The notes beneath the pieces are model-generated. The model made no database searches, had not been told where the DNA came from, and worked only from the letters and a program-made list of their open reading frames with translations. Below, piece after piece: positions 2,269-45,700 of a stretch of DNA of 64,000 nucleotides; the first letter of the stretch is position 1; every line of letters starts with the position of its first letter. Origin of the DNA: a virus; IMG/VR virus record IMGVR_UViG_3300005613_000046, positions 1 to 64,000 of that record. One strand, written 5' to 3'. The position numbers were made by a program, and so were the translations under genes.

Positions 2269-3273
2269 TTATTTTCCAAATCCCATTTTTCCTGAACCCC
2301 TTACTGATGGAGCTCTTTTCAAACCTTCTAAATTATCCATTACTTCCTCAAACTCTCTACCCATAACAATAGTTGAAATTACAACTTCTTTCAAGTGTGA
2401 TAAAGACATTCCTTCAGTTCTTTTAACCCACTCTTGAATATCAACATTTTTAAGGTCTTCTTCTTTTAATTTGTGACGAATATAAGCTTCTCTAATTTCC
2501 TCATTAGGTAGTTCTACTTTATATCGTCTATCAAAACGAGATGGTCTATTTGTAATTCGTTCTTGTAGTTTTTCAGGATAGTTTGTTGTTGCAATATAAA
2601 CAACATCTTCTATTTGTTTTACACCATCAAGAATGTTTAATAATTTACTTGTGGAATAATTGCTTTCACCCGCAATTGAGTCTAAGTCTTCCAATAACAC
2701 AATTAAAGGTCTGTTTGGTTCAATTTTTCTAAAAGTTGAAATAAAATCAATAAAGAAATCAACATCATCATGGTCTTTAATGTTTAGAATGATTCCATTA
2801 TTTTCAATCAGTTGTTTTGCAATTAATTGAATAATACCTGATTTACCACATCCTGGTTCACCATACATTAAAATGCCACGCTTATGAACAAAATTATATT
2901 CTCTATATTTGTCTCTACGATCCCAAAAATCTTGAATGTCTTTAAGAATGTCTTGAATCTCATAAGAAGGTAATTGATATAATTCATCTGTTTTAAATGG
3001 TTGTTTTTTTAGTGTGATTTGACTTACATTTCGGTTATATTGTAGTTCATATATTCCTGATGGAACTTGATCTACCGATTTAAATGACGGAACAAACTCC
3101 TCATCTTGTAATGTTCCCCAACATGTCGGAGTTGCCGAGTTTATTTTATCATCAACTTTTTCATTACCACTTGTTGTTTCAATATCTTTTAAATCGGAGT
3201 TCATTTGTGTTGCTAAATCTTCCATCATTTGATCTAATTCATCGTCTTTAACCGTTTTAATTTTTCTTTTCAT
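2269..3273 (-). CDS. AAA+ ATPase
   Basis: Walker A GEPGCGKS, Walker B LLEDLD, sensor TTNYPE, SRH RPSRFDR. Confidence 0.9.
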   Translation of the reverse strand: MKRKIKTVKDDELDQMMEDLATQMNSDLKDIETTSGNEKVDDKINSATPTCWGTLQDEEFVPSFKSVDQVPSGIYELQYNRNVSQITLKKQPFKTDELYQLPSYEIQDILKDIQDFWDRRDKYREYNFVHKRGILMYGEPGCGKSGIIQLIAKQLIENNGIILNIKDHDDVDFFIDFISTFRKIEPNRPLIVLLEDLDSIAGESNYSTSKLLNILDGVKQIEDVVYIATTNYPEKLQERITNRPSRFDRRYKVELPNEEIREAYIRHKLKEEDLKNVDIQEWVKRTEGMSLSHLKEVVISTIVMGREFEEVMDNLEGLKRAPSVRGSGKMGFGK

Positions 3274-3515
3274 CTTACTAAAATTGGATGTATAATTATT
3301 AATATATCTTCAGTTTTTTCTTTTACTTTAACCACTCTGTCTTTATACAATTTCAAAGTTTCTTTTGGATTTTTACTCTTAAGATGTTCAAACTGAACTT
3401 TCATTTCTTCTCTCGCATCTTTTTGTTTTTTGAAGTATCCGAAGTAATCGTCACATCCACCAACACCTCTTGTTTTATCGTAAACCCCGTAAATCAGGTC
3501 GTTTTCTTCTGCCAT
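3270..3515 (-). CDS. hypothetical protein, paralog of 6299..6520
   Basis: shared IYGVxDKT...CDxYFG(Y/F)FK...IxIHxx(L/V)xR. Confidence 0.7.
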   Translation of the reverse strand: MAEENDLIYGVYDKTRGVGGCDDYFGYFKKQKDAREEMKVQFEHLKSKNPKETLKLYKDRVVKVKEKTEDILIIIHPILVR

Positions 3516-13480: not shown

Positions 13481-13511
13481 GATACAAATATAATAAAAAA
13501 AATCGCATAAA

Positions 13512-13535
13512 AAAAGGGAGATTAATCTCCCTTTT
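13512..13535. terminator. palindromic intrinsic terminator
   Basis: perfect palindrome AAAAGGGAGATTAATCTCCCTTTT. Confidence 0.75.
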
Positions 13536-13551
13536 AAACTAATTATTAAGA

Positions 13552-14442
13552 TTAAATATATTGATCAAACTGACTTGCATCAAACGATGATGTGCTCGTG
13601 TCGAAACCTCCACCACCTTTGAATTTCACTTCTTCAGGTTTTGAGGAATCTTTTGATGGTGTAGTTCCACAAATATTTTTAATAATATTTCCTGACAAAC
13701 TACCCTTTTCATCTTTATATTTCACACCTTCAATTTGGAATATTTTATTTTTACAACCAAACCATCCAAACCTTCCATCGGGTAATCTAAAACTAGCACC
13801 ATTTTTGTCTTGTTTAAATGCATATCCAGTCCCTTTTGGTATTTTTATAGTCGTTCCTTTTTCTGATTTAACAATATAATCATTTTTTTGACTATATGAT
13901 TTTCCACCACCAACAGCCTCAGCACCATAAGAGGTTTTTTTATCTTTTGATTGACTTTTTGCCAATTTGATTGCCGGTTCTAATGGTTTATAAACATATT
14001 CTCTCCATTCACTATCCATATCAATATCACCATCAATAGCATCAAATAAAGATTCCGCATAAGTATTTTTATATAAAAAACTTGCTCTACAAAGATCGGG
14101 AATTGTCTTAAATTTACCCAAATTTTGTTTTAACATATCTTCATTTGTTCCGGCCCCCTGTAATGATTGGAAAATAGAAACATTTATTTTTTCAAGTTCA
14201 CTATTGCTCATAGTTGGTTTTCCCATGTCTTTAGATCCACAAGATTTAAAAATCTTTTTAACACCTTCCATTGTTCCATCAGAACTTAAAAGATACACCA
14301 TAGCTGCGGGTCCTGGCATTGCTAATGCAAGAGTTCCTGTTACAGCGGTTCCTATAGCATCTTTCACATCACCTACACTATATTCTAATAATATAAATTT
14401 TAATTTATCGTATTGTCTTTCGGTTAGTATTATTTTTCTCAT
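13552..14442 (-). CDS. N-terminally tagged protein with annexin-like repeat
   Basis: MRKIILTERQYDKLKFILLE tag; SLQGAGTNEDMLKQNL...LYKNTYAESLFDAIDGD resembles the annexin repeat. Confidence 0.6.
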   Translation of the reverse strand: MRKIILTERQYDKLKFILLEYSVGDVKDAIGTAVTGTLALAMPGPAAMVYLLSSDGTMEGVKKIFKSCGSKDMGKPTMSNSELEKINVSIFQSLQGAGTNEDMLKQNLGKFKTIPDLCRASFLYKNTYAESLFDAIDGDIDMDSEWREYVYKPLEPAIKLAKSQSKDKKTSYGAEAVGGGKSYSQKNDYIVKSEKGTTIKIPKGTGYAFKQDKNGASFRLPDGRFGWFGCKNKIFQIEGVKYKDEKGSLSGNIIKNICGTTPSKDSSKPEEVKFKGGGGFDTSTSSFDASQFDQYI

Positions 14443-14453
14443 ATTTACATTAT

Positions 14454-15032
14454 TTAACTAAATGTCACATTTTTTTCATATGCGGTTAATGGTTCTGCCT
14501 TTGGTTCTTGAGTGTTTACATCTCCAACGTTAGAAACAACGGATTCTGGTTTTGCACCAACACCATGAATTTTTTTGGTTGGTGTTAATTTACCTTTACA
14601 AGATTCGAATGCGCTAATAGTTTTTGAACCAATTAAACCATCTTCAACTAATTTCACTTTTAATATTTCTGTCGGACATTCGTCGTTTAATCTCACTTGC
14701 ATTTTCAAAACTTTTTCATTACAGTTTGGTTTTTTTCCTGCACATGTCATTGTCGTATATCTACCTGAAGCGACGTTAGTCGTAGGTTGTCCTTGAGGTG
14801 GTGTAACAGTAACTGTTGGATTTTGAGCGGTATATTCAGCCGCTGTCGCTGGCTCAGAACCTAACGGTGGTGATTTATAACCAGTAAGTTTTATAACTTT
14901 TCCTGTTTGGTCTTTATAATATTGAACGGGTTCTTCTTGTTCAAAAACATAATTGTTTTTGGTTGCAGTTTCATGCATATTCAAAATTCGACTTCTTTCG
15001 TTTTCATTAATCACAAAAAGATTTTTTTTCAT
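14454..15032 (-). CDS. N-terminally tagged protein with peptidoglycan-binding-like domain
   Basis: INENERSRILNMH tag; VLKMQVRLN...LVEDGLIGSKTISA resembles PG_binding_1; TATTTAT at 15048-15054. Confidence 0.6.
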   Translation of the reverse strand: MKKNLFVINENERSRILNMHETATKNNYVFEQEEPVQYYKDQTGKVIKLTGYKSPPLGSEPATAAEYTAQNPTVTVTPPQGQPTTNVASGRYTTMTCAGKKPNCNEKVLKMQVRLNDECPTEILKVKLVEDGLIGSKTISAFESCKGKLTPTKKIHGVGAKPESVVSNVGDVNTQEPKAEPLTAYEKNVTFS

Positions 15033-15064
15033 ATTTGACTTTTTATAATAAATACAACAAAAAC

Positions 15065-15098
15065 AAAAAAAGGTGAGTAATTCTCACCTTTTTTTTTT
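15065..15098. terminator. bidirectional-type intrinsic terminator
   Basis: A run-GGTGAG-TAATT-CTCACC-T run. Confidence 0.75.
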
Positions 15099-15155
15099 GA
15101 GTCGACACTGAATGTGTCATTTCTCCACCACTTTGTTTTTATTAGAACAAAGAAA

Positions 15156-15590
15156 CTATTGTCTTTCCATCCAAATTCTAATCGAATTTTGATTAGTAAA
15201 ATAATTCTTGAACTGACAATTTTCTAATAACCCTTGTGTTAAATTGTAATCATACATCGGACCACTTATATGTCCCCAAGGTGTATTGTTCAATGTCAAA
15301 GTAAAATTAAATTGACTTGGATAAAAATTATATGTTGACTGAACTCCGTTGAATGAATAAACAGAATTTGAAATAAAGACAAGAGTGTCAGATCTTAATT
15401 CCTGATTAAAACTCGTGTTCAATATTTTAGTTATAACCCACGTTTGACCCTTCAAAGACACCGTAGAATCAACTGAAGTTGTGTCAGTGATGATTGGTTG
15501 TGGACTCAAAGGTTGTTGAGGTGTAACGTCTTCTTTAACACAAGATGTGATTAAAGAAATTAAAATTATTAAAAATGATAAATATTTCAT
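15156..15590 (-). CDS. putative lipoprotein
   Basis: MKYLSFLIILISLITS-C lipobox followed by VKED. Confidence 0.7.
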   Translation of the reverse strand: MKYLSFLIILISLITSCVKEDVTPQQPLSPQPIITDTTSVDSTVSLKGQTWVITKILNTSFNQELRSDTLVFISNSVYSFNGVQSTYNFYPSQFNFTLTLNNTPWGHISGPMYDYNLTQGLLENCQFKNYFTNQNSIRIWMERQ

Positions 15591-15591
15591 A

Positions 15592-15867
15592 CTATACTAA
15601 TGTTTCGATTTTATTTCTTACTTGTTCTCCTATTGACACTTCTTTAACGTTTGTTAAAATCAAAGACTCTTTTAAAATTTTATGAGGAATGTGAACCAAA
15701 AAGGTATTTCCATCAAAATAAGATAAGTCTTCTTTTAGATTTAAGGCACCATCAACCATTTTCAAAAAGATCTTAAATTGAATTGGATCCACAAAAGACT
15801 CATTTAAAAGGTCTCCGAATTTTTCATTAACGATCGTGATTGTATGTTGAAATGTTGATTTTATCAT
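15592..15867 (-). CDS. hypothetical protein
   Basis: 91-aa ORF; TATATTTG box at 15883-15890. Confidence 0.7.
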   Translation of the reverse strand: MIKSTFQHTITIVNEKFGDLLNESFVDPIQFKIFLKMVDGALNLKEDLSYFDGNTFLVHIPHKILKESLILTNVKEVSIGEQVRNKIETLV

Positions 15868-15913
15868 GGTGTTTTATTTCTACAAATATACTAATAAAAA
15901 GAATAACTACAAA

Positions 15914-16330
15914 CTATTTTAAAACTTTTTTTAATAAGTCCAACAATTCTTTGTTTTCATCTTGTTGTGGAATATCACTTTGTTTGTGGTATTTACATGC
16001 GGTATGTTCAAACCCATCTTGAGCCATTTCTAAATCAGGATTTAATTCATCTTCGGTTTCTTTAAAGAATACAAACATATGTCCCTTTTTTGTCCCATCT
16101 TTTTTGAATTTATCAATAAACCCAACAAATTCTATTTTTGGATCTAATTCAATATTTGTTTCTTCATAAAATTCTCGAATAGCAGCTTGACCTGGTGATT
16201 CACCATCTTCAATCTTTCCTGATGGTATTGACCAAACATTTGGCATTGACTTATCAGGAGCTCTTTTACATAATAAAACTTCATCATTATGTTTTAATAT
16301 AATACCCGCCCATTTTTTAAAGTTAACCAT
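15914..16330 (-). CDS. NUDIX hydrolase
   Basis: Nudix box GKIEDGESPGQAAIREFYEETNI. Confidence 0.9.
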   Translation of the reverse strand: MVNFKKWAGIILKHNDEVLLCKRAPDKSMPNVWSIPSGKIEDGESPGQAAIREFYEETNIELDPKIEFVGFIDKFKKDGTKKGHMFVFFKETEDELNPDLEMAQDGFEHTACKYHKQSDIPQQDENKELLDLLKKVLK

Positions 16331-16332
16331 AG

Positions 16333-16346
16333 ATATTTATAAATAT
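16333..16346. promoter_or_regulatory. palindromic bidirectional TATTTATA element
   Basis: ATATTTATAAATAT perfect palindrome fills the 14-nt gap between divergent ATGs at 16330 and 16345. Confidence 0.6.
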
Positions 16347-16686
16347 GAAAGTAAAAATAAATAACAATCTTTTTGATGTTAAAACTTTATTAACTTCCAA
16401 AGATACTCAAAAAGGTATGATGGGTAAAAAATTTAATGGGTTTGACGGAATGTTATTCTTTATGAAAAAAGAACCACATTCTTTTTGGATGAAAAATTGT
16501 GTGGTTCATTTAGATATTATTTTTATTAATGATGATTCAATCGAAAAAATTCATCACAACTGTAAACCTTGTATGTCTGAAGACTGTGATCGTTATGATG
16601 GTTATGGTGATTTAATTTTGGAACTTCCTGGTGGAACTTGCAAAAAATATGACATCAAAGAAGGTGATAGTATAGATTTACTTTAA
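16345..16686 (+). CDS. DUF192 family protein
   Basis: KGMM...DGMLF...FWMKNC...LDIIFI...LELPGG. Confidence 0.85.
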   Translation: MKVKINNNLFDVKTLLTSKDTQKGMMGKKFNGFDGMLFFMKKEPHSFWMKNCVVHLDIIFINDDSIEKIHHNCKPCMSEDCDRYDGYGDLILELPGGTCKKYDIKEGDSIDLL

Positions 16687-17532
16687 TCCCTCTATTTTAA
16701 CTTGTTTTTTCTCATCAACAAATGACTGAACTCTTCCTCTTGCAACATCACAATAATTCGGTGAAAGTTCGATTCCCAACCAACGTCTGTCTAAAATTTC
16801 CGCGGCGACTAAACTAGTTCCGCTACCAGCGAACGGATCCAAAATTACATCGTTTTTATATGACAAGATTTTAATCGCCTTGGTCGGTATGTCCATTGAA
16901 AAGGTTGCCTTAGTCAAAGATTTAGTGTCGGCAAAATAATTCCACTGACCAAAGACAAGTTCCATAAACTCTTTTTTATCATTCTCACTATAAACCATTT
17001 TATTTCTTTTGGTTCCGTCTTCTTTTTCAACTTCAGTTAATTCACCAGTCCATTCGGGTTGTCCTTTAACTTTTTTAATATGTTGTTTTTTATATGCTAA
17101 AATAACACACTCCTTCGGGTTATAGATATAAGGACTTGATGGACTCATCCATGATCCCCAAGCTGTAGTCTTACTTCTATGTGGTGATTGTTCTTCTAAA
17201 TCAACGATCCCAAAAAAACCATAACCGATCTCTTGCATAATTCTCCACATCTCAGCCACAAAAAATATACGACCACCTTTTTTCTGTCTGTTAATTTCAT
17301 ATGGAATGTTAAGGGCAATTCTTCCATCATCTTTCAATAATCTATACGCCTCGCTCAACCAATTTTTTGCAAACTCTTGATAATCATTAAACTCCATATC
17401 ATCTTCATGAACATCATAGTCAATACCTACCCCATAAGGTGGTGAAGTCACTATAAGGTCAACTGATCCTTCAGGTAATGTTTTCATCACCTCAACACAA
17501 TCCCCATTTATTATTTTTTTTGTTTCTATCAT
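16678..17532 (-). CDS. DNA methyltransferase, N4/N6 beta class
   Basis: catalytic TSPPY near N-terminus; SAM motif LDPFAGSGTS near C-terminus. Confidence 0.92.
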   Translation of the reverse strand: MIETKKIINGDCVEVMKTLPEGSVDLIVTSPPYGVGIDYDVHEDDMEFNDYQEFAKNWLSEAYRLLKDDGRIALNIPYEINRQKKGGRIFFVAEMWRIMQEIGYGFFGIVDLEEQSPHRSKTTAWGSWMSPSSPYIYNPKECVILAYKKQHIKKVKGQPEWTGELTEVEKEDGTKRNKMVYSENDKKEFMELVFGQWNYFADTKSLTKATFSMDIPTKAIKILSYKNDVILDPFAGSGTSLVAAEILDRRWLGIELSPNYCDVARGRVQSFVDEKKQVKIEGLK

Positions 17533-17536
17533 ATTC

Positions 17537-17932
17537 TTAAATTATTGTTGTTAACATTTGTGCCACTTTATATCCTGTGAAAGCTCCGGCCGCTGCAGAT
17601 CCAGGTAAAACGATAAACTTTCCAAGTATTGTGTCATATTTCTTTCTATTTACAATATAAGAAATCAATATGTAATAAACAATATAGTTGATTAAAACAA
17701 ATAAGTCCAGTTCTTTTGAAACAAAAACAACAATTGAATTTCCTAAAAAACCCCAAATAAAATTGATTAAAGTTTCTCTCATCAATTCGTTTGGTGTTGT
17801 TATTGCACCTAAGACGTTAATCTCTCGATTCAGACTTGATTTTTTGTTTGAGTTGTTCGATGTGGTGGTCGAGATACCACTTTGCTTTGAGTAAATCCTC
17901 GAGTTCTTTGTTTTTTCCTTTTTTTCCTGCAC
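17537..17932 (-). CDS. small membrane protein (start uncertain)
   Basis: hydrophobic C-terminal region of about 85 aa; annotated N-terminus overlaps the upstream gene. Confidence 0.55.
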   Translation of the reverse strand: MQEKKEKTKNSRIYSKQSGISTTTSNNSNKKSSLNREINVLGAITTPNELMRETLINFIWGFLGNSIVVFVSKELDLFVLINYIVYYILISYIVNRKKYDTILGKFIVLPGSAAAGAFTGYKVAQMLTTII

Positions 17933-18065
17933 GACTAATATATTTTATTGTATTTCCTAAACTAAATCCTAATTCCCAAGCATCTATCACTTTGATTGCT
18001 TCATATTCATTATTTTTTCCTCCGTAATGATCGGGGTGGTTTACTTGTTCTTTATTATTTTCCAT
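17817..18065 (-). CDS. DUF3310 / T7 gp1.7-like protein
   Basis: VNHPDHY...EAIKVI...FSLGNTIKYISRAGKK...EDLLKAKWYL. Confidence 0.85.
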   Translation of the reverse strand: MENNKEQVNHPDHYGGKNNEYEAIKVIDAWELGFSLGNTIKYISRAGKKGKNKELEDLLKAKWYLDHHIEQLKQKIKSESRD

Positions 18066-18068
18066 AAC

Positions 18069-18419
18069 TTATTTCCAAAATAATTGTATTACTAATATTC
18101 CTAATGCTAATACCAAACAAACTATTGTCTTTAACGTCAACGGTTCTTTGAATATCAACCAACTTAACCATGTGAATACGACAGCTCCAATACTAAACCC
18201 TATAAGTCTTGACGGCCACATTTGACCATCAAAGGCTATTACCATATTCTTAACTGAATACATAAATAACATTGAAATTGGCATTCCCATTAAAACCAAA
18301 AACCAATAATGATTTTTGAACCATTCGTATTTTAAAGGTCCTTGTAGTTGAAAAAATGTTCCTATTTGTGCAAAAAACCCAAAAATAATTCCAACTACAA
18401 GTGCGACAATATTTGTCAT
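18069..18419 (-). CDS. small 4-TM membrane protein (DMT/EamA-like)
   Basis: four hydrophobic helices, C-terminal FKEPLTLK. Confidence 0.6.
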   Translation of the reverse strand: MTNIVALVVGIIFGFFAQIGTFFQLQGPLKYEWFKNHYWFLVLMGMPISMLFMYSVKNMVIAFDGQMWPSRLIGFSIGAVVFTWLSWLIFKEPLTLKTIVCLVLALGILVIQLFWK

Positions 18420-19459
18420 TAATTTTTCTCCTCTTTATATTCTTTTAATAATTCTTCGGTTGTATCCAATGATTTAACAATTTCACGAATGATTTTATAT
18501 GGATCGGCATTTGATCCTGGTCTACGGTCTTCAACATAACCTTCCCAATTTTCTGCGGTGTCTTTTGGAACTCTAATTGATGCTCCACGATCAGACACAC
18601 CCCAACTGAACTTATTTATTGATTGAGTTTCATATTCACCGGTAAGTCTTAAATGATTTCCTGAACCATACGCTTTAATGTGATCGTTATGTCTTGCTTC
18701 AAATGCGTTGAATAGTGACATAAAATACTCTTCGTTTCCTTCATATCTCATAATACCCGTTGAGAAGTTTGTATGAAGACCTGATCCATTCCATTCTCCG
18801 TGAGTTAATGGTTTTGGATGAAGTTCAATATGGTATCCGTATTTTTCAGCAATCTTAAATAAGAAATAACGAGTCATCCAAAGATCATCACCACCTTTAT
18901 GTTTCCCTTGCGAGAACACTTGATATTCCCACTGACCTAATGCTACCTCAGCGTTTATTCCTGTAAGGTCAATTCCATAATTTAAACACATGTTCAAATG
19001 TTCGTCAACAAATGGACGACCCACCACATTATGCCCAACTCCACAATAGTATTCACCCTGTCCTTTTAGAATGTTTCTTTTATGACCCAAAATATTACCA
19101 TTAATTTCTTCACGAATAAAATACTCTTGTTCAAAACCAAACCAAAGATCTTCATGACCTTCAGTAATTTTTGATCTATAATTTGTTTCATGTGGAGTTC
19201 CATCAGGGTTTAATACCTCACATAAGACATAAACCGTTGATTGCATATCTTGAATATAATGTCTTACAGGTTTTAATAAAAGATCTGATTTTTCGGTATT
19301 TGCTTGTCCTGTTGATGATCCGTCAAAGTTCCACACCGGAAAACTATTGTCTAAAAACGCGGTGTCAATTGTTCCGTAATTAACAATTTTAACTTTACTT
19401 CTAAGGTTCGGTTCTGGTTTATACCCGTCTAACCAAACATATTCTAGTTTAATTTTCAT
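18419..19459 (-). CDS. glnII: glutamine synthetase type II
   Basis: KLEYVWLDG, LRSK, WNFDGSST, FEQEY, INAEVALGQWEYQ, WNGSGLHTNFS, RLTG, RGASIRVP, EDRRPGSNADPY; 346 aa. Confidence 0.93.
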   Translation of the reverse strand: MKIKLEYVWLDGYKPEPNLRSKVKIVNYGTIDTAFLDNSFPVWNFDGSSTGQANTEKSDLLLKPVRHYIQDMQSTVYVLCEVLNPDGTPHETNYRSKITEGHEDLWFGFEQEYFIREEINGNILGHKRNILKGQGEYYCGVGHNVVGRPFVDEHLNMCLNYGIDLTGINAEVALGQWEYQVFSQGKHKGGDDLWMTRYFLFKIAEKYGYHIELHPKPLTHGEWNGSGLHTNFSTGIMRYEGNEEYFMSLFNAFEARHNDHIKAYGSGNHLRLTGEYETQSINKFSWGVSDRGASIRVPKDTAENWEGYVEDRRPGSNADPYKIIREIVKSLDTTEELLKEYKEEKN

Positions 19460-19580
19460 TTTTTATATGTTTTCGGATTTTATTTTCAATATATAACCTT
19501 CTGATTTTTTTACCTAACTCGGTATCATTTGGTGTTTCTTTGATAAGTTTTTCTAAAACTTTTCTAATTTCTTTTTCCAT
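19449..19580 (-). CDS. small hypothetical protein (43 aa), not in ORF track
   Basis: MEKEIRKVLEKLIKETPNDTELGKKIRRLYIENKIRKHIKNEN fills the gap between two genes. Confidence 0.6.
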   Translation of the reverse strand: MEKEIRKVLEKLIKETPNDTELGKKIRRLYIENKIRKHIKNEN

Positions 19581-25675: not shown

Positions 25676-25740
25676 TTTGTTTCTCGTTTATCACAATACA
25701 AAGATATGTAATTTTTGATAAATACCAAATATTTTAGAAA

Positions 25741-28274: not shown

Positions 28275-28311
28275 AATACAAAGATAAGAAAATTTTAGAT
28301 AAACACCAAAA

Positions 28312-42025: not shown

Positions 42026-43372
42026 TTACTTTTTATATGATAATACTCTTGTGTTTTCTTCTTCTTTAGATTCTTCTGGAGTGACTCTAACTTCAATTAT
42101 CTTTTCAACTTCTTTGATTACTTCAACAGGAACCTCAACGATCTTTTCAACCTCAACAATTCTATCAACAGGAACCTCAACGATCTTTTCAACCTCAACA
42201 ATTTTATCTACAGGAATGTGAATAATTTTTTCAACCTCAGTTGGGACTTCAACGATCTTTTCAACTTCTCTAATAACTTCAAAGGGAACTTCACGAACAA
42301 CTTCAACAACTCTATCAACAGGAACTTCACGAACTACTTCAACAACTCTATCTACAGGAACTTCAACTATTTTTTCAACTTCCACAATCTTTTCAACCTC
42401 AACGATTCTATCAACAGGAACCTCAACAATCTTCTCAACTTCCACAATTTTTTCAATAACTTCAGGTTCAACTTGTGGTGTATCGATGGGATAAAAATAA
42501 CTTTCAGGAACCTCAACTTCATCTTGAAACGGGTATTCTTCATATTCAGGTTTAATCTCGTCCTCTTCTTTTCTTCTGAAATGTTTGAATGCTTGGTTTG
42601 TTGAAATCACAAGGGCTATTGCCAAAGGATCGAAAACAAAAATCAAAGTTAGAATAAAGAAGTTTGCGGTTTTTTTAATTTCCCATCCTGTAATTTCACT
42701 TAGATATTTAATGGCTCCTAACTCACCAGTTTCAATTTCTTTTGACGAAATGTCCAAAATCTGAATATCCAAATTTGTAATACTATCATTTAACGCATCA
42801 ATTCTTGATGTAATAGTATCTCTATTTTGTTGAGCAATTTTTAATTGTGATTCAAAAGCTCTTCTATTTCCAGCATTTGCTCTTGTCACAACTTGACCTG
42901 ATTGTCTATCTACACTTTGTGTTGTTGTATTTGTTGAAAGGGCGTTTCTTAAACTTGTTATATCTTTATCTAACCCTTTCTTTTCTTTTTGATATTCTTT
43001 TTTGATTTCTTCAAATCTTCCTTTTTTTACCTCAATATTTTCAACTTTTTTATTGTTAATCTCAAGACCCGCAATACTTTTTTGAAACCCTGTCGCCAAA
43101 AGTCCGTAAATACCTATGGAAGTTAAAATCGATAATGTGACAAGTGCCAATGTTAGATATGTTTTTAACACACCATAAACTTTAGTCCAACTATCGTGAA
43201 GATAAGTGGCGATCGCCATTTTGGATATTTCTAAAAATGATCCCATTATAATCACAGGGATTGCAACTCCTGAAAATATGATTGAAAGTCCGTATACACT
43301 ATAATATGCCGCAGTTCCTGATAGTCCAAGTGCGCAGAACAATAAGAGCCATGGTAAAAATTTACTATTCAT
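42026..43372 (-). CDS. membrane coiled-coil protein with C-terminal EKIVEVPV repeats
   Basis: 3 N-terminal TM, coiled coil, FVFDPLAIAL, articulin-like tail; TATTTAT at 43385-43391. Confidence 0.75.
   Translation of the reverse strand: MNSKFLPWLLLFCALGLSGTAAYYSVYGLSIIFSGVAIPVIIMGSFLEISKMAIATYLHDSWTKVYGVLKTYLTLALVTLSILTSIGIYGLLATGFQKSIAGLEINNKKVENIEVKKGRFEEIKKEYQKEKKGLDKDITSLRNALSTNTTTQSVDRQSGQVVTRANAGNRRAFESQLKIAQQNRDTITSRIDALNDSITNLDIQILDISSKEIETGELGAIKYLSEITGWEIKKTANFFILTLIFVFDPLAIALVISTNQAFKHFRRKEEDEIKPEYEEYPFQDEVEVPESYFYPIDTPQVEPEVIEKIVEVEKIVEVPVDRIVEVEKIVEVEKIVEVPVDRVVEVVREVPVDRVVEVVREVPFEVIREVEKIVEVPTEVEKIIHIPVDKIVEVEKIVEVPVDRIVEVEKIVEVPVEVIKEVEKIIEVRVTPEESKEEENTRVLSYKK
42085..42462 (-). 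repeat. articulin/alveolin-like VEVPV coding repeats
   Basis: tandem (E/D)(K/R)(I/V)VEV(P/E)V units. Confidence 0.85.
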
Positions 43373-43496
43373 TGTTTTTATTTTATAAATATCAAAATAA
43401 TTAATTTGACATGAAATATAAACCCTATAAAGATAGAATTGGGGTTTACCTTGGTGAGTTCATTATTTAATAATTTTTTTAAGATATTTATTTTAT

Positions 43497-44120
43497 ATGA
43501 AAAATTTAATTAAAAATATTTTAAATGAATATTTTAATGAAAAAAATATAATATTACGTGAGATAAATTTACCTGATAGAATTTTTAATTTATTAATCAC
43601 AGAAGGAACTGCCACAGTAAAGATACCAGAAGGGTTGGAGTCTTCATTAAAAAAATACATTTCTAAAAAATTTAATTGGCCTCCCACTGTCGATTCAAAA
43701 TGGTGTAGTGATATAAAAGAAAAAATTAATAAAGATGGGAGACTAGTTAAATCTTGTAATAAAATATTCGAAATTGAATTGACTAATCATTGGTTAAAAA
43801 GACTTTTTAGAAAAAACGAACCTGAATACCAAAAAGGCGGAAAATTTCAAAATAAAAAATTTGAAAACCCAAAGAAAACCGAGGGTATTGATTTATTTTT
43901 CAATAGTTCCAAAAAAATAAATGATTTTATAGATAATTCTCATAATTGGCAAGTCAATGATTCAAAACTTATATTATTAACTGATTTAAGTAATAAGTAT
44001 CAAGTTATAATAGAGTTAAAAAAAGAAAAAAGATCAAATTATATTGCAAGGTTTATAACACAAATTAAGGGTGAAAAATTTTTCGATACACCAGAATTAA
44101 GAAAATCAATAAGATTATAA
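43497..44120 (+). CDS. N-terminally tagged basic protein
   Basis: MKNLIKNILNE tag; TATTTAT at 43485-43491. Confidence 0.7.
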   Translation: MKNLIKNILNEYFNEKNIILREINLPDRIFNLLITEGTATVKIPEGLESSLKKYISKKFNWPPTVDSKWCSDIKEKINKDGRLVKSCNKIFEIELTNHWLKRLFRKNEPEYQKGGKFQNKKFENPKKTEGIDLFFNSSKKINDFIDNSHNWQVNDSKLILLTDLSNKYQVIIELKKEKRSNYIARFITQIKGEKFFDTPELRKSIRL

Positions 44121-44146
44121 AAAAAGGGTGGATTTTACTCCACCCT
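44119..44146 (-). terminator. intrinsic terminator
   Basis: minus strand AGGGTGGA-GTAAAA-TCCACCCT followed by T6. Confidence 0.8.
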
Positions 44147-44322
44147 AATTGATTTCATATCGAGAAATCGGTCGTCCATTGGGCTGTGTATGGATAAGCC
44201 GGTGATCACCACATTTCTGTGTATTCAGTGAATGTCCCTCTTTTTCGATCACCATAACCCTACCTAAGCAGGATTATGAAACTTTTTTAATGGAAAGCCA
44301 CAAAACCAATTGTCTAATTCAA
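44119..44322 (-). ncRNA. candidate structured non-coding RNA
   Basis: own TATCTTTG box (44328-44335) and terminator; locally GC-enriched; closing stem and several G-U-containing hairpins; no ORF in track. Confidence 0.6.
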
Positions 44323-44327
44323 CACTA

Positions 44328-44335
44328 CAAAGATA
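44328..44335 (-). promoter_or_regulatory. TAnnTTTG promoter box
   Basis: TATCTTTGTAGTGT, same context as the promoter at 1998. Confidence 0.7.
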
Positions 44336-44365
44336 ATACAATTTTTTAAACCGCCAAAAATTATT

Positions 44366-45166
44366 TTATAAATAGTCAAATAATTCAGAAGAGTCGTTTC
44401 GTAGTCGACGAAGAGCCTTTTCTTTGATCTGACGAACTCTTTCTTTGGTTAGACCAAAGTCTGAACCAATGTCCTCCAAAGTTCGTGGTGTCCCACTTAA
44501 ACCAAAGTAATCGGCTACGATAACCTTCTCACGATCATCCAATACGTGTAAAAGTTTCATTAACTTATCTTTTAGAACATCTTTGGTGTCAAATACCGCA
44601 TCAGGTAATTCGGCATCCTTATTCTCAATCATATCAATCAAAGTATCACCATCTTCATTAATATTCATATCAAGATCTATTATTGAAGGTAGTGTTGAAA
44701 ACTTATCCTCAAGTTTTTTTCCTGATTGTTCCACCTCTTTTTTTGCCCTTTGTAGATCTTGAACTACATTGACCGGTAGACGAATTGTTCTTGCGTTATC
44801 ATTTAACGATTGAATGATTGATTGTTTGATCCACCATACACCATAAGAAATGAAACGTAAATCTTTGTTCCAATCAAAGTTTTTAATCGCCTTCATAAGT
44901 CCAAGGTTTCCTTCAGCAATAAGATCTGACATATCAAGTCCTTGATTTTGATATTGTTTTGCAACCGTAATAACAAAACGAAGATTTCCTTCAATAAGTT
45001 CCCTTTCTATTCTTTTTCGTTCAGATGTGGGAGTATCTTCTGACTTCATTTTTTTTGCCAGTTCTCGCTCTCGTTCTGCAGTCATTACCTTAATTTTTCT
45101 AATGTCTCTAAGGTAGTGTTGAAGTTCGTCTTGATTAATGTGTGCTCCTGTGTTTTTGTCTTTCAT
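44366..45166 (-). CDS. sigma-70 family RNA polymerase sigma factor (RpoD-like, no region 1.1)
   Basis: YLRDI, NLRFVITVAKQY, DLIAEGNLGLMKA, FISYGVWWIKQ, RTIRLP, TLEDIG...TKERVRQIKEKALRRLR. Confidence 0.93.
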   Translation of the reverse strand: MKDKNTGAHINQDELQHYLRDIRKIKVMTAERERELAKKMKSEDTPTSERKRIERELIEGNLRFVITVAKQYQNQGLDMSDLIAEGNLGLMKAIKNFDWNKDLRFISYGVWWIKQSIIQSLNDNARTIRLPVNVVQDLQRAKKEVEQSGKKLEDKFSTLPSIIDLDMNINEDGDTLIDMIENKDAELPDAVFDTKDVLKDKLMKLLHVLDDREKVIVADYFGLSGTPRTLEDIGSDFGLTKERVRQIKEKALRRLRNDSSELFDYL

Positions 45167-45175
45167 GTATTTGTA

Positions 45176-45700
45176 TTATAGTGATTTTGAGTATTCTTCT
45201 AACTTTTGTTTTTCTAATTCCGATAATGAGTCCATTCCTTCTTGACTGATCTTATCAAGTAATTCGTCAAGTGTCATATTACATACTTCATTTTTTTTAA
45301 TATTTAATATGAAATCCGCAATATCAAAAAACCCATCAGGATTTTTATTAAGATCAATTTTTGGTATTCTTAATTTTTTTTGTTTTGGTTTTGGCGTGGT
45401 ATTCTTTAACGATAATAAATCGTTTAGGTTGTCTTCGTCCAAATTTGAAACCGTTTTTGTTGGTTTTTTGGTTAAAAAATATTCAAACCCTCCCACTTCT
45501 TCATTAATAAAGAATAATACATCTTGGATATCCTCAATTGGTCCTTTAGCATCAAAATGAAAAATGGCGTGTTTTGGTCCATACAAGAACTTAACAGTTC
45601 CTGATGCCAAATTTTCTGAGATCATTGTTGCAATTTGTTGTGTTTTGTTTTCAGAGTCCTCAATCGTCTCGTCGTAATAAGAAAAAAGTAAGTAATTCAT
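45176..45700 (-). CDS. hypothetical protein with C-terminal DUF6576-like motif
   Basis: LDELLDKISQEGMDSLSELEKQKL; TATATTTG at 45722-45729. Confidence 0.65.
   Translation of the reverse strand: MNYLLFSYYDETIEDSENKTQQIATMISENLASGTVKFLYGPKHAIFHFDAKGPIEDIQDVLFFINEEVGGFEYFLTKKPTKTVSNLDEDNLNDLLSLKNTTPKPKQKKLRIPKIDLNKNPDGFFDIADFILNIKKNEVCNMTLDELLDKISQEGMDSLSELEKQKLEEYSKSL

Follow-up and report, generated by a model that had tools for sequence, protein, structure and literature searches.

Phages and prophages carry convergent antisense RNAs, such as RatA/TxpA, SR4/BsrG and lambda OOP, that act by extended pairing with an mRNA. Comparative genomics of phages and metagenomes has yielded orphan structured RNA motifs (e.g. 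PMC2864571), and reports on the type III toxin-antitoxin systems ToxIN and CptIN (PMC5772629, PMC4627078) and on the phage-borne noncoding RNA (ncRNA) RCd22 (PMC12373285) describe RNAs that neutralise a protein by direct binding, the protein being AbiF in the last case. Here, we report a structured RNA gene on the minus strand of a 72-kb virus fragment from IMG/VR (record IMGVR_UViG_3300005613_000046), together with a gene for a protein of 207 amino acids (aa) that converges on it; the 64-kb stretch of the fragment that was analysed, positions 1 to 64,000, is referred to as the window. By analogy, the nearest known logic appears to be that of the RNA antitoxins ToxI and CptI and of RCd22/AbiF, from which the locus departs in gene orientation, type of RNA and protein family. 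The RNA probably works with the 207-aa protein and not as a 6S-like decoy of RNA polymerase, because it travels with the protein gene and not with the sigma factor gene that lies upstream of it in the window. The decoy had been raised as one possibility in a preliminary description made from the letters of the DNA, which recognised an independently transcribed, structured ncRNA candidate without a known family directly downstream of the sigma gene, and which proposed that Rfam be searched and covariation be sought in relatives.

A folded RNA gene and its covariation

On the minus strand, positions 44119-44358 comprise a promoter, then about 205 nt without a conserved open reading frame (ORF), then a terminator. 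The features of the gene are as follows.

44328-44358, minus: Bacteroidota sigma-A-type promoter (pattern match, and the same motif at the same distance before the RNA in every phage lineage)
44358-44355, minus: -33 element TTTG, 19 nt upstream of the -7 box
44335-44328, minus: -7 box TATCTTTG, sequence checked
44289-44323, minus: 5' domain with hairpins P0 and P1', read by eye on alignments
44323-44312, minus: P0, a short hairpin in the 5' domain
44311-44306 with 44293-44289, minus: hairpin P1', AAUUGG with CCAUU, loop UUUUGUGGCUUU
44278-44253, minus: hairpin P2, 11 bp, CAUAAUCCUGC-UUAG-GUAGGGUUAUG, present in the window
44201-44253, minus: three-way-junction core, supported by covariation
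44253-44246 with 44208-44201, minus: P3, GGUGAUCG with UGAUCACC, closing the three-way junction
44221-44218 with 44213-44210, minus: P4, CACA with UGUG, followed by a single G
44175-44200, minus: H-type pseudoknot with loops of 2, 4 and 2 nt
44200-44197 with 44185-44182, minus: pseudoknot stem S1, 4 bp, GGCU with AGCC, covarying
44194-44190 with 44179-44175, minus: pseudoknot stem S2, 5 bp, UCCAU with AUGGA, covarying
44169-44164 with 44156-44151 (span 44151-44169), minus: hairpin P6, GAUUUC with GAAAUC, loop motif CGAKA
44146-44125, U run to 44119, minus: intrinsic terminator, an 8-bp G+C-rich stem, then seven T

Folded as a single sequence, the minus strand reaches a minimum free energy of -58.6 kcal/mol (z = -2.42, with 3 of 200 shuffled sequences folding as well), and the plus strand does nearly as well (z = -2.31). 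Because this is only mildly better than chance, the reality of the RNA rests on its relatives. These were gathered by a scan with the sigma protein, which gave 80 related loci, by pattern scans, by two covariance models, the second of which (R2) covers the core only, and by searches with the protein gene. In all, 18 copies of the RNA were found, in phage contigs and in two Flavobacteriales genomes, and they comprise a family of about 14 sequence-distinct lineages. Weak matches of model R1 elsewhere, for example at 13508-13687 of the window (20 bits, E 0.012), proved to be the end of a coding region plus a terminator and not further copies. In the 16 copies aligned to the model, 94.9% of cells pair, compared to 74.1% in shuffled alignments (0 of 500 shuffles reached the observed value) and 35-57% in slid controls, and 26 of the 31 pairs have changed on both sides. 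When 12 cores were aligned with MAFFT without regard to structure and the pseudoknot was added, 88.1% of cells paired, against 72.5% for shuffles (0/500) and 33-45% for slid controls. The locus is a real, folded, non-coding RNA gene of about 205 nt, and the covariation proposed as a check is plainly present in its relatives.

The conserved order from 5' to 3' is promoter, P0, P1', an A-rich linker, P2, the P3 three-way junction, the pseudoknot, P6 and the terminator. Across the 18 copies covered by the per-copy pairing table, P3 pairs at all eight positions in 12, with changes on both sides at six of its eight pairs, and P4 pairs at all four positions in every copy. G-U pairs are frequent in P3 (for example UG:8 and GU:7) and fit only the strand of the promoter and terminator; the same had been remarked of the G-U pairs seen in the single sequence. 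The P4 helix had likewise been seen, as a CACA-GAAA-UGUG hairpin (44221-44210), but its GNRA loop is not a conserved feature, being replaced by UAAC, UUAG, UAACA, CAAAA or AAA in relatives. In the family the junction consists of AAAAnGA, helix P3a, AAUAC, P4 and the single G; in the window the first strand reads AAAAAGA and the P3a position is unpaired, as it is throughout this clade. The letters UGAAAA, AUAC/AAUAC and GGUG of the junction are near-invariant.

The pseudoknot follows directly. The preliminary description had listed its first stem as a GGCU/AGCC pairing, which is now S1, supported by covariation, and had suggested that UCCAU(U) segments might pair with AAUGGA; the UCCAU/AUGGA pairing is S2, whereas the 5' UCCAUU is not a conserved partner of AAUGGA. 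In the MAFFT alignment, S1 pairs in 91.7% of cells, with three of its four pairs changed on both sides, and S2 in 90%. All nine pairs form in 15 of the 18 copies and eight of nine in the other three, with letters that differ between lineages: GGCU/AGCC and UCCAU/AUGGA in the window, GGGU/ACCC and GUUGG/CCAAC in L118, and GGAU/AUCC and CUUGG/CCAAG in L136. As 0-62 of 300 shuffles also satisfy the pseudoknot grammar when copies are taken singly, support for it comes from this recurrence with different letters and not from any one copy. Hairpin P6 pairs in 92.4% of cells, with five of six pairs changed on both sides, and its loop is UCGAUAU in the window and ACGAGA, ACGAUA, CCGAUA or ACGAAA in relatives.

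The 5' half is more variable. P1', P2 and P3a were judged by eye only. P1' appears across clades as UGG/CCA, CUUG/CAAG or AGGG/CCCU, with the loop consensus UUUGYGGYUU, and the place of P2, the 11-bp hairpin already noticed in the window, is taken by a hairpin of wholly different sequence in clades B, C and D and in the first copy of a metagenome-assembled genome (MAG). Six lineages are short forms that lack both P1' and P2. The 13-bp stem described as closing the ends of the RNA (44311-44299 with 44159-44147) does exist in the window, but it is kept elsewhere only in lineage L007 and is not a feature of the family: clade B has an 8-bp end stem in another register, and the short forms have no 5' domain at all. 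An AUCGA/UCGAU stem from the same description is abandoned: clades B to E have not retained it, and its formation would be at the expense of P3 and the P6 loop. The conserved working part of the RNA is the three-way junction followed directly by the H-type pseudoknot and the CGAKA-loop hairpin, P1' and P2 being optional. Three further pairings were considered and dropped: helix P5a of model R2, three pairs flanking S2 that form in 9, 7 and 12 of 12 sequences and conflict with the better-scoring S1 (91.7%); a kissing contact between the P1' loop and a pseudoknot loop; and a GGGA-UUCC pairing, the last two showing no consistent covariation by eye.

The alignments also bear on whether the region codes for a peptide. 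Taken literally, the earlier remark that no ORF is present here does not hold, as a 36-codon ATG ORF (36 aa) runs from 44255 to 44145 on the minus strand, but no conserved ORF exists: in the closest relatives the frame is broken, by a stop at codon 6 in L007 and by a 1-nt insertion followed by a stop after 15 codons in L063. As substitutions track base-pairing and not codon positions, we give next to no credence to the idea that the region encodes this peptide and that the structure is incidental.

In a search of Rfam 15 (4227 models), as had been proposed, no model reached its gathering score in the window as a whole, in the region, in 20 relatives or in 9 divergent members. At E values up to 10, positions 43950-44500 gave seven chance-level matches, none of them 6S, with scores no higher than 19 bits where the cut-offs are 44-64; the best sub-threshold match over the RNA was istR, with 19 bits against a gathering score of 45. 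No riboswitch or ribozyme model matched in the Rfam searches of the window, the region and the divergent members, ARAGORN found no transfer RNA or transfer-messenger RNA, and a literature search, with supplements outside its reach, returned no description of this RNA. The RNA belongs to a family that matches no Rfam model and is previously undescribed. The candidate thus stands as a functional structured ncRNA without a known family, given the lack of an Rfam match, the strong covariation, and its own promoter motif and terminator.

The TATCTTTG box and the strong terminator were both found as originally reported. The promoter reads TTTG-N19-TATCTTTG (44358-44328) and meets the Bacteroidota sigma-A pattern, with TTTG near -33 and TAnnTTTG at -12 to -5. 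As the TAnnTTTG box of Flavobacterium psychrophilum sigma-A sits at -12 to -5 according to passages of the relevant report (PMC9723704), the RNA would start near G 44323. The loose TTTG/TAnnTTTG pattern is not above chance in the window (10 seen against 7.0 expected), and therefore the weight of the assignment comes from conservation of the motif before every phage copy and not from the pattern alone. Two more close copies of the extended form of the promoter (TTTGG...TATCTTTG) are present in the window, at 25699-25729 and 28279-28310, both on the minus strand, the latter also being recovered by its similarity to the promoter of the RNA. In L141 the promoter is duplicated in tandem as two near-identical units of about 80 nt (about 2300-2490, minus strand). 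At the other end of the gene, all eight terminator pairs have changed on both sides across copies.

Independent transcription of the RNA is what its promoter and terminator would predict. Four RNA sequencing runs from four studies, stored as contigs, were compared over 43400-45400, runs with small shares being set aside, and all four contain relatives of the sigma region. A single contig of 151 nt lies on the RNA gene (run X3, 44192-44342, depth 3, 0 differences), such contigs showing neither ends nor levels and allowing for DNA carry-over. Runs X2, X4 and X7 have no contig over 44119-44335, where missing cover proves nothing.

Linkage to a convergent protein gene

Three further features flank the RNA gene.

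43497-44120, plus: ORF of the convergent 207-aa gene, stopping 5 nt before the terminator stem, tail to tail with the RNA gene
43484-43491, plus: motif ATATTTAT, just before the ATG of the 207-aa gene
44366-45166, minus: sigma-70-family gene (Pfam Sigma70 regions 1.2, 2 and 4), upstream of the RNA gene

The 207-aa protein has 61 relatives in a large protein database and 101 cluster representatives. In order to assess its linkage to the RNA, viral loci were fetched by the protein alone, in part with a protein profile built from a closer subset of its relatives, which gave 23 distinct contigs, 22 of them testable (L137 ends inside the protein gene and was left out). In all 22 the RNA model matches the opposite strand just past the stop codon of the protein gene, with E < 0.01 in 20; the two weak matches, L135 and L139 (E 0.09 and 0.21), still show 8/8, 4/4 and 8-9/9 pairs. 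The linkage holds down to 25% protein identity (L141). At least five gene neighbourhoods contain the pair: it follows sigma or a cytosine-methylase-like ORF, precedes a gene of 225-250 aa, or adjoins a 458-aa ORF or a 145-aa ORF whose GxxGSGKS motif is P-loop-like, the methylase-like and P-loop-like ORFs being named by eye. Among 50 sigma-bearing records, RNA and protein gene are present and adjacent in four, the RNA alone in one, the protein gene alone in none, and neither in 45. These counts, together with the varied neighbourhoods, indicate that the RNA and the protein gene form a single accessory cassette, passed as a unit from one phage genome to another. The only phage lineage with the RNA but no protein gene, L007/G005, is also the one with the most broken pairs (an A.C in P3, two A.C in P6, a C.U in S1 read from alignment rows, and a C.U in S2), which is a single anecdote.

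Searches of Pfam (best E 0.0085, short of the gathering score), PHROGs, PADLOC, NCBIfam and PDB sequences (E 2.4) assigned the protein to no family, and the ESM Atlas gave no usable lead, its model having a predicted local distance difference test score of 0.52. Residues invariant in 36 sequences include E36, H98, R102, R105, E129, Q189, K191 and G192, among others; that this His/Arg/Glu/Lys set could suit a nuclease or RNA-binding site is only a guess.

The protein gene lacks the host-type promoter motif. Instead, ATATTTAT lies 4-10 nt before its ATG in 12 of 12 lineages. Elsewhere in the window, (A/T)ATATTTAT falls 0-16 nt before the ATG of an ORF at 7 of 15 motif sites, compared to 6.6% of random positions; the other sites at ORF starts are 12424, 21610, 32035, 33741 and 63400 on the minus strand and 35478 and 58451 on the plus strand. 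From this placement we infer a putative phage-specific, start-proximal signal, perhaps a promoter that is peculiar to the phage and gives very short leaders.

The two genes lie back to back on a common terminator, an arrangement that calls to mind type I toxin-antitoxin pairs and lambda OOP, and in which the RNA might be a cis-antisense regulator that pairs with the 3' end of the protein mRNA or, in trans, with its 5' end. Convergent genes parted only by a common terminator would suit such a role, and in the window the plus-strand side of the terminator has no good T run, so that transcription of the mRNA might continue into the RNA gene. The terminator stem of clades B to D, however, has an A run before it and a T run after it and thus has the form of a terminator in either direction. 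For 10 lineages, pairing of each RNA with positions -60 to +30 of its own mRNA was computed, and the duplex energies are no better than those of shuffled sequences (z -1.34 to +1.28) or of non-cognate pairs. Moreover, antisense action needs no conserved junction or pseudoknot, and a 207-aa protein is not a small toxic peptide. We regard antisense regulation as very unlikely on these grounds.

A membrane-type protein of 448 aa with long, imperfect C-terminal repeats (EKIVEVPVDRIVEV...) is encoded beside the cassette at 42026-43372 on the minus strand, and its homologues in clades A and B (356-418 aa) likewise lie next to the cassette.

The sigma gene and the distribution of the RNA

The sigma gene is a neighbour in this phage genome and not part of the module, and its link to the RNA is incidental. 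Among the DNA matches of the sigma scan, the RNA lies directly after sigma only in L006-L008, at 85% identity, and a metagenome copy (L093) has the same position. In clade B (L060 and L063; 70% identity) the RNA is 1.8 kb beyond sigma, in clade C (L098) it is about 15 kb away, and clades D and E, which were recovered via the protein gene, have it in other gene neighbourhoods. The remaining matching sigma loci have in common with the window only the 45-nt promoter. Only five of the 50 sigma-bearing relatives have the RNA, and the 45 without it include three genomes whose completeness is 93-99%. The preliminary description accordingly gives the sigma neighbour too much weight, the conserved neighbour being the convergent 207-aa gene.

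These distributions bear directly on the suggestion of a 6S-like RNA that occupies the RNA polymerase holoenzyme and is tied to the upstream phage sigma factor. Like 6S RNA, this one is non-coding and near 200 nt, and it adjoins a sigma-70-family gene in the window, the L006-L008 lineage and L093. However, no 6S model matched, either in the search at E up to 10 or in the nine divergent members. The fold is a three-way junction with a pseudoknot and hairpins, unlike the long rod with a large central bubble of 6S RNA, and an end-to-end stem is limited to the clade of the window. Given, in addition, that the RNA lies elsewhere than after sigma in clades B to E and is missing from most sigma-bearing relatives, a polymerase decoy is highly improbable.

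What follows the sigma gene varies among the related phages. Right after the sigma stop codon, 35 of the 80 loci have another conserved structured element (GGGTTGAACCGAGATTACCC...), about 105 nt long and absent from the window (about 3799-3960 in L009, L013, L015, L019, L020, L022 and L030, and likewise in L032, L033, L036, L038, L039, L050 and L053). It lacks its own promoter, is closed by a terminator and matches nothing in Rfam; RNAalifold gives 31 pairs, seven of them changed on both sides, for example GGUG/CACC, GAGA/UCUC and GGGA/UCCC. Judged on these features, it is probably a separate new motif in the 3' untranslated region of sigma. Other loci have the same host-type promoter after sigma and then different, G+C-richer non-coding units (TATCACAAACAACGGGTAAAGG..., TATCACAAACGACGAGAGATAT...), at about 3806-4000 in L001-L004, at 3952-4150 in L019, where the unit ends in a terminator, and from about 3806 onward in L066 and L068. 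A contig of RNA run X2 departs from the window at 44357 into the second of these unit types. In the remaining sigma loci, other promoter-driven non-coding units or protein genes follow sigma. The slot after the sigma gene thus seems to collect different small RNA genes in related phages.

No close relative of the window was found among deposited phage genomes, and INPHARED records gave no DNA match; related contigs reach 290 kb. The promoter type, together with the matches in two Flavobacteriales genomes, points to Flavobacteriales as likely hosts. Passages of a recent report describe large aquatic phages of Flavobacteriia with a core sigma factor (PMC12619734); those same passages contain the word 'noncoding' zero times and no account of this RNA. 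In bacteria the RNA is rare. Only 2 of 151 genomes of the order Flavobacteriales matched, the MAG G051 with two tandem copies and G181 with one, and in two family samples of 151, apparently the same sample, only the query genome itself matched in each.

Tandem RNA units are arranged head to tail, at 2143-2549 in L113/L114, 2143-2482 in L115 and 2956-3359 in the MAG (L106), all on the minus strand. A promoter is found only before the first unit of such pairs, and the second directly follows the terminator of the first. Some 3 kb separate the G181 copy (L147, contig C73) from a type I restriction-modification system with HsdR, HsdM and a YhcG nuclease (13796-19580), confirmed with Pfam, and some 2 kb separate the MAG copy (L106) from an ORF (3-983) whose HsdR-like helicase motif is weak (E 0.022). 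The bacterial copies may therefore occupy defence islands, though two cases are too few to build on. A small ORF downstream of the RNA in the MAG looked ArfA-like at first; it has no Pfam match, and the assignment was withdrawn.

A cis-acting leader, that is a riboswitch or attenuator, or else a self-processing ribozyme, would fit an RNA in which a junction and a pseudoknot with invariant unpaired nucleotides are followed by a terminator, which is tandemly repeated in L113-L115 and the MAG, and which has a co-directional ORF after the terminator in L007/L090 and in the MAG. The ORFs of L007 and the MAG are, however, unrelated to each other, and no known riboswitch or ribozyme model matches the RNA. 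In the window and in every protein-bearing lineage the next gene is convergent, leaving nothing downstream to regulate, which excludes a leader role there. Taking leader and ribozyme together, we see only a slim chance that the RNA is of this kind.

Proposed action and comparison with known systems

Given covarying helices, a near-invariant junction, strict linkage and separate promoter types, we tentatively favour, at a little short of even confidence, the reading that the RNA binds or controls the convergent 207-aa protein. The folded RNA would bind the protein directly and would be its regulator, neutraliser or cofactor, much as RNA antitoxins restrain a protein. It would be made from the host-type (sigma-A) promoter, and the protein gene would be read via the phage-typical ATATTTAT signal instead of a host-type motif. 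While the gene anatomy, the covarying fold and the linkage of the two genes are observed, independent transcription, binding and the direction of its effect are what we infer from them.

Several observations weigh against this proposal. The RNA occurs without the protein gene in phage G005 and in the Flavobacteriales genomes G051 and G181, indicating that it can persist, and perhaps act, alone; a search of 401 genomes of the order gave the protein in none. The linkage is partly shared descent of one cassette and shows co-inheritance, not interaction. Nothing in Pfam, PHROGs, PADLOC, NCBIfam or PDB sequences places the protein in a recognisable family of nucleases or RNA-binding proteins. To our knowledge, the convergent orientation is unlike that of every described RNA-antitoxin locus. 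Finally, the X3 contig extends about 19 nt past the predicted start of the RNA, and so shows neither a discrete transcript nor the lack of one and could be DNA carry-over.

Some of the same facts would suit an RNA that acts in trans on a host component, by sequestering a host protein, nuclease or defence factor or by mimicking its ligand, with the neighbouring protein as co-travelling cargo or as a member of the same pathway that does not bind the RNA. The copies that stand alone in G005, G051 (both tandem copies) and G181 agree with this, as does the proximity of the G181 copy to a confirmed type I restriction-modification system and of the MAG copy to the weak HsdR-like motif. Near-invariant junction letters within covarying helices are expected of a specific binding surface, and the host-type promoter would suggest early expression. 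Such a role does not explain why the RNA so strictly adjoins one protein family over identities of 25-100%, sits poorly with the rarity of the RNA in bacteria, and has no candidate host partner identified for it. We consider it unlikely, although it deserves to be taken seriously. A broader scheme would place both genes in a new class of two-gene phage system in which an RNA, transcribed early from the host-type promoter, restrains or guides a novel effector of about 200 aa, with the host copies in defence islands by type I restriction-modification genes implying that defence and counter-defence share the RNA; this we regard as quite doubtful.

If the RNA does control the 207-aa protein, the logic of RNA antitoxins would reach a new architecture, in which convergent genes encode a large folded RNA and a protein of a new family. 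Independently of its action, the locus adds a well-supported structured RNA family, built on a three-way junction and an H-type pseudoknot, from what appear to be large uncultured phages of freshwater Flavobacteriales, a group whose ncRNAs are essentially unknown.

Compared to the type III systems ToxIN and CptIN and to AbiF/RCd22, the likeness is that of a mobile or phage-borne cassette of one protein gene and one dedicated structured RNA. As in type III systems, the RNA holds a pseudoknot and occurs as tandem copies in some members (L113-L115 and the MAG); the pseudoknot is conserved, and its binding and inhibition of the protein are proposed. Unlike type III antitoxins, which are 34-36-nt repeats, the RNA is 150-210 nt long with a three-way junction. 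In every one of the 22 testable contigs the genes converge, each with its own promoter, whereas in type III loci the RNA lies upstream of the toxin gene, co-directional with it and with a terminator in between, and the protein matches no ToxN, CptN, TenpN, Abi_2 or PADLOC model.

With RatA/TxpA, SR4/BsrG and lambda OOP the locus shares an RNA gene of about 80-220 nt that lies tail to tail with a protein gene in a phage or prophage genome. The partner here has 207 aa, whereas type I toxins are short hydrophobic peptides. Furthermore, the common terminator limits overlap between the transcripts, the RNA has no complementarity to the 5' region of the mRNA in the 10 lineages compared, and selection acts on a tertiary-looking fold.

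Finally, the RNA resembles the orphan motifs obtained by comparative genomics (for example those in PMC2864571), which were likewise found by covariation, have several helices and invariant junction letters, and are partly phage-borne. Unlike most of these, it comes with a strictly linked protein gene, whose family counts 101 cluster representatives, and this is a direct experimental handle by which one experiment could reveal the function of both.

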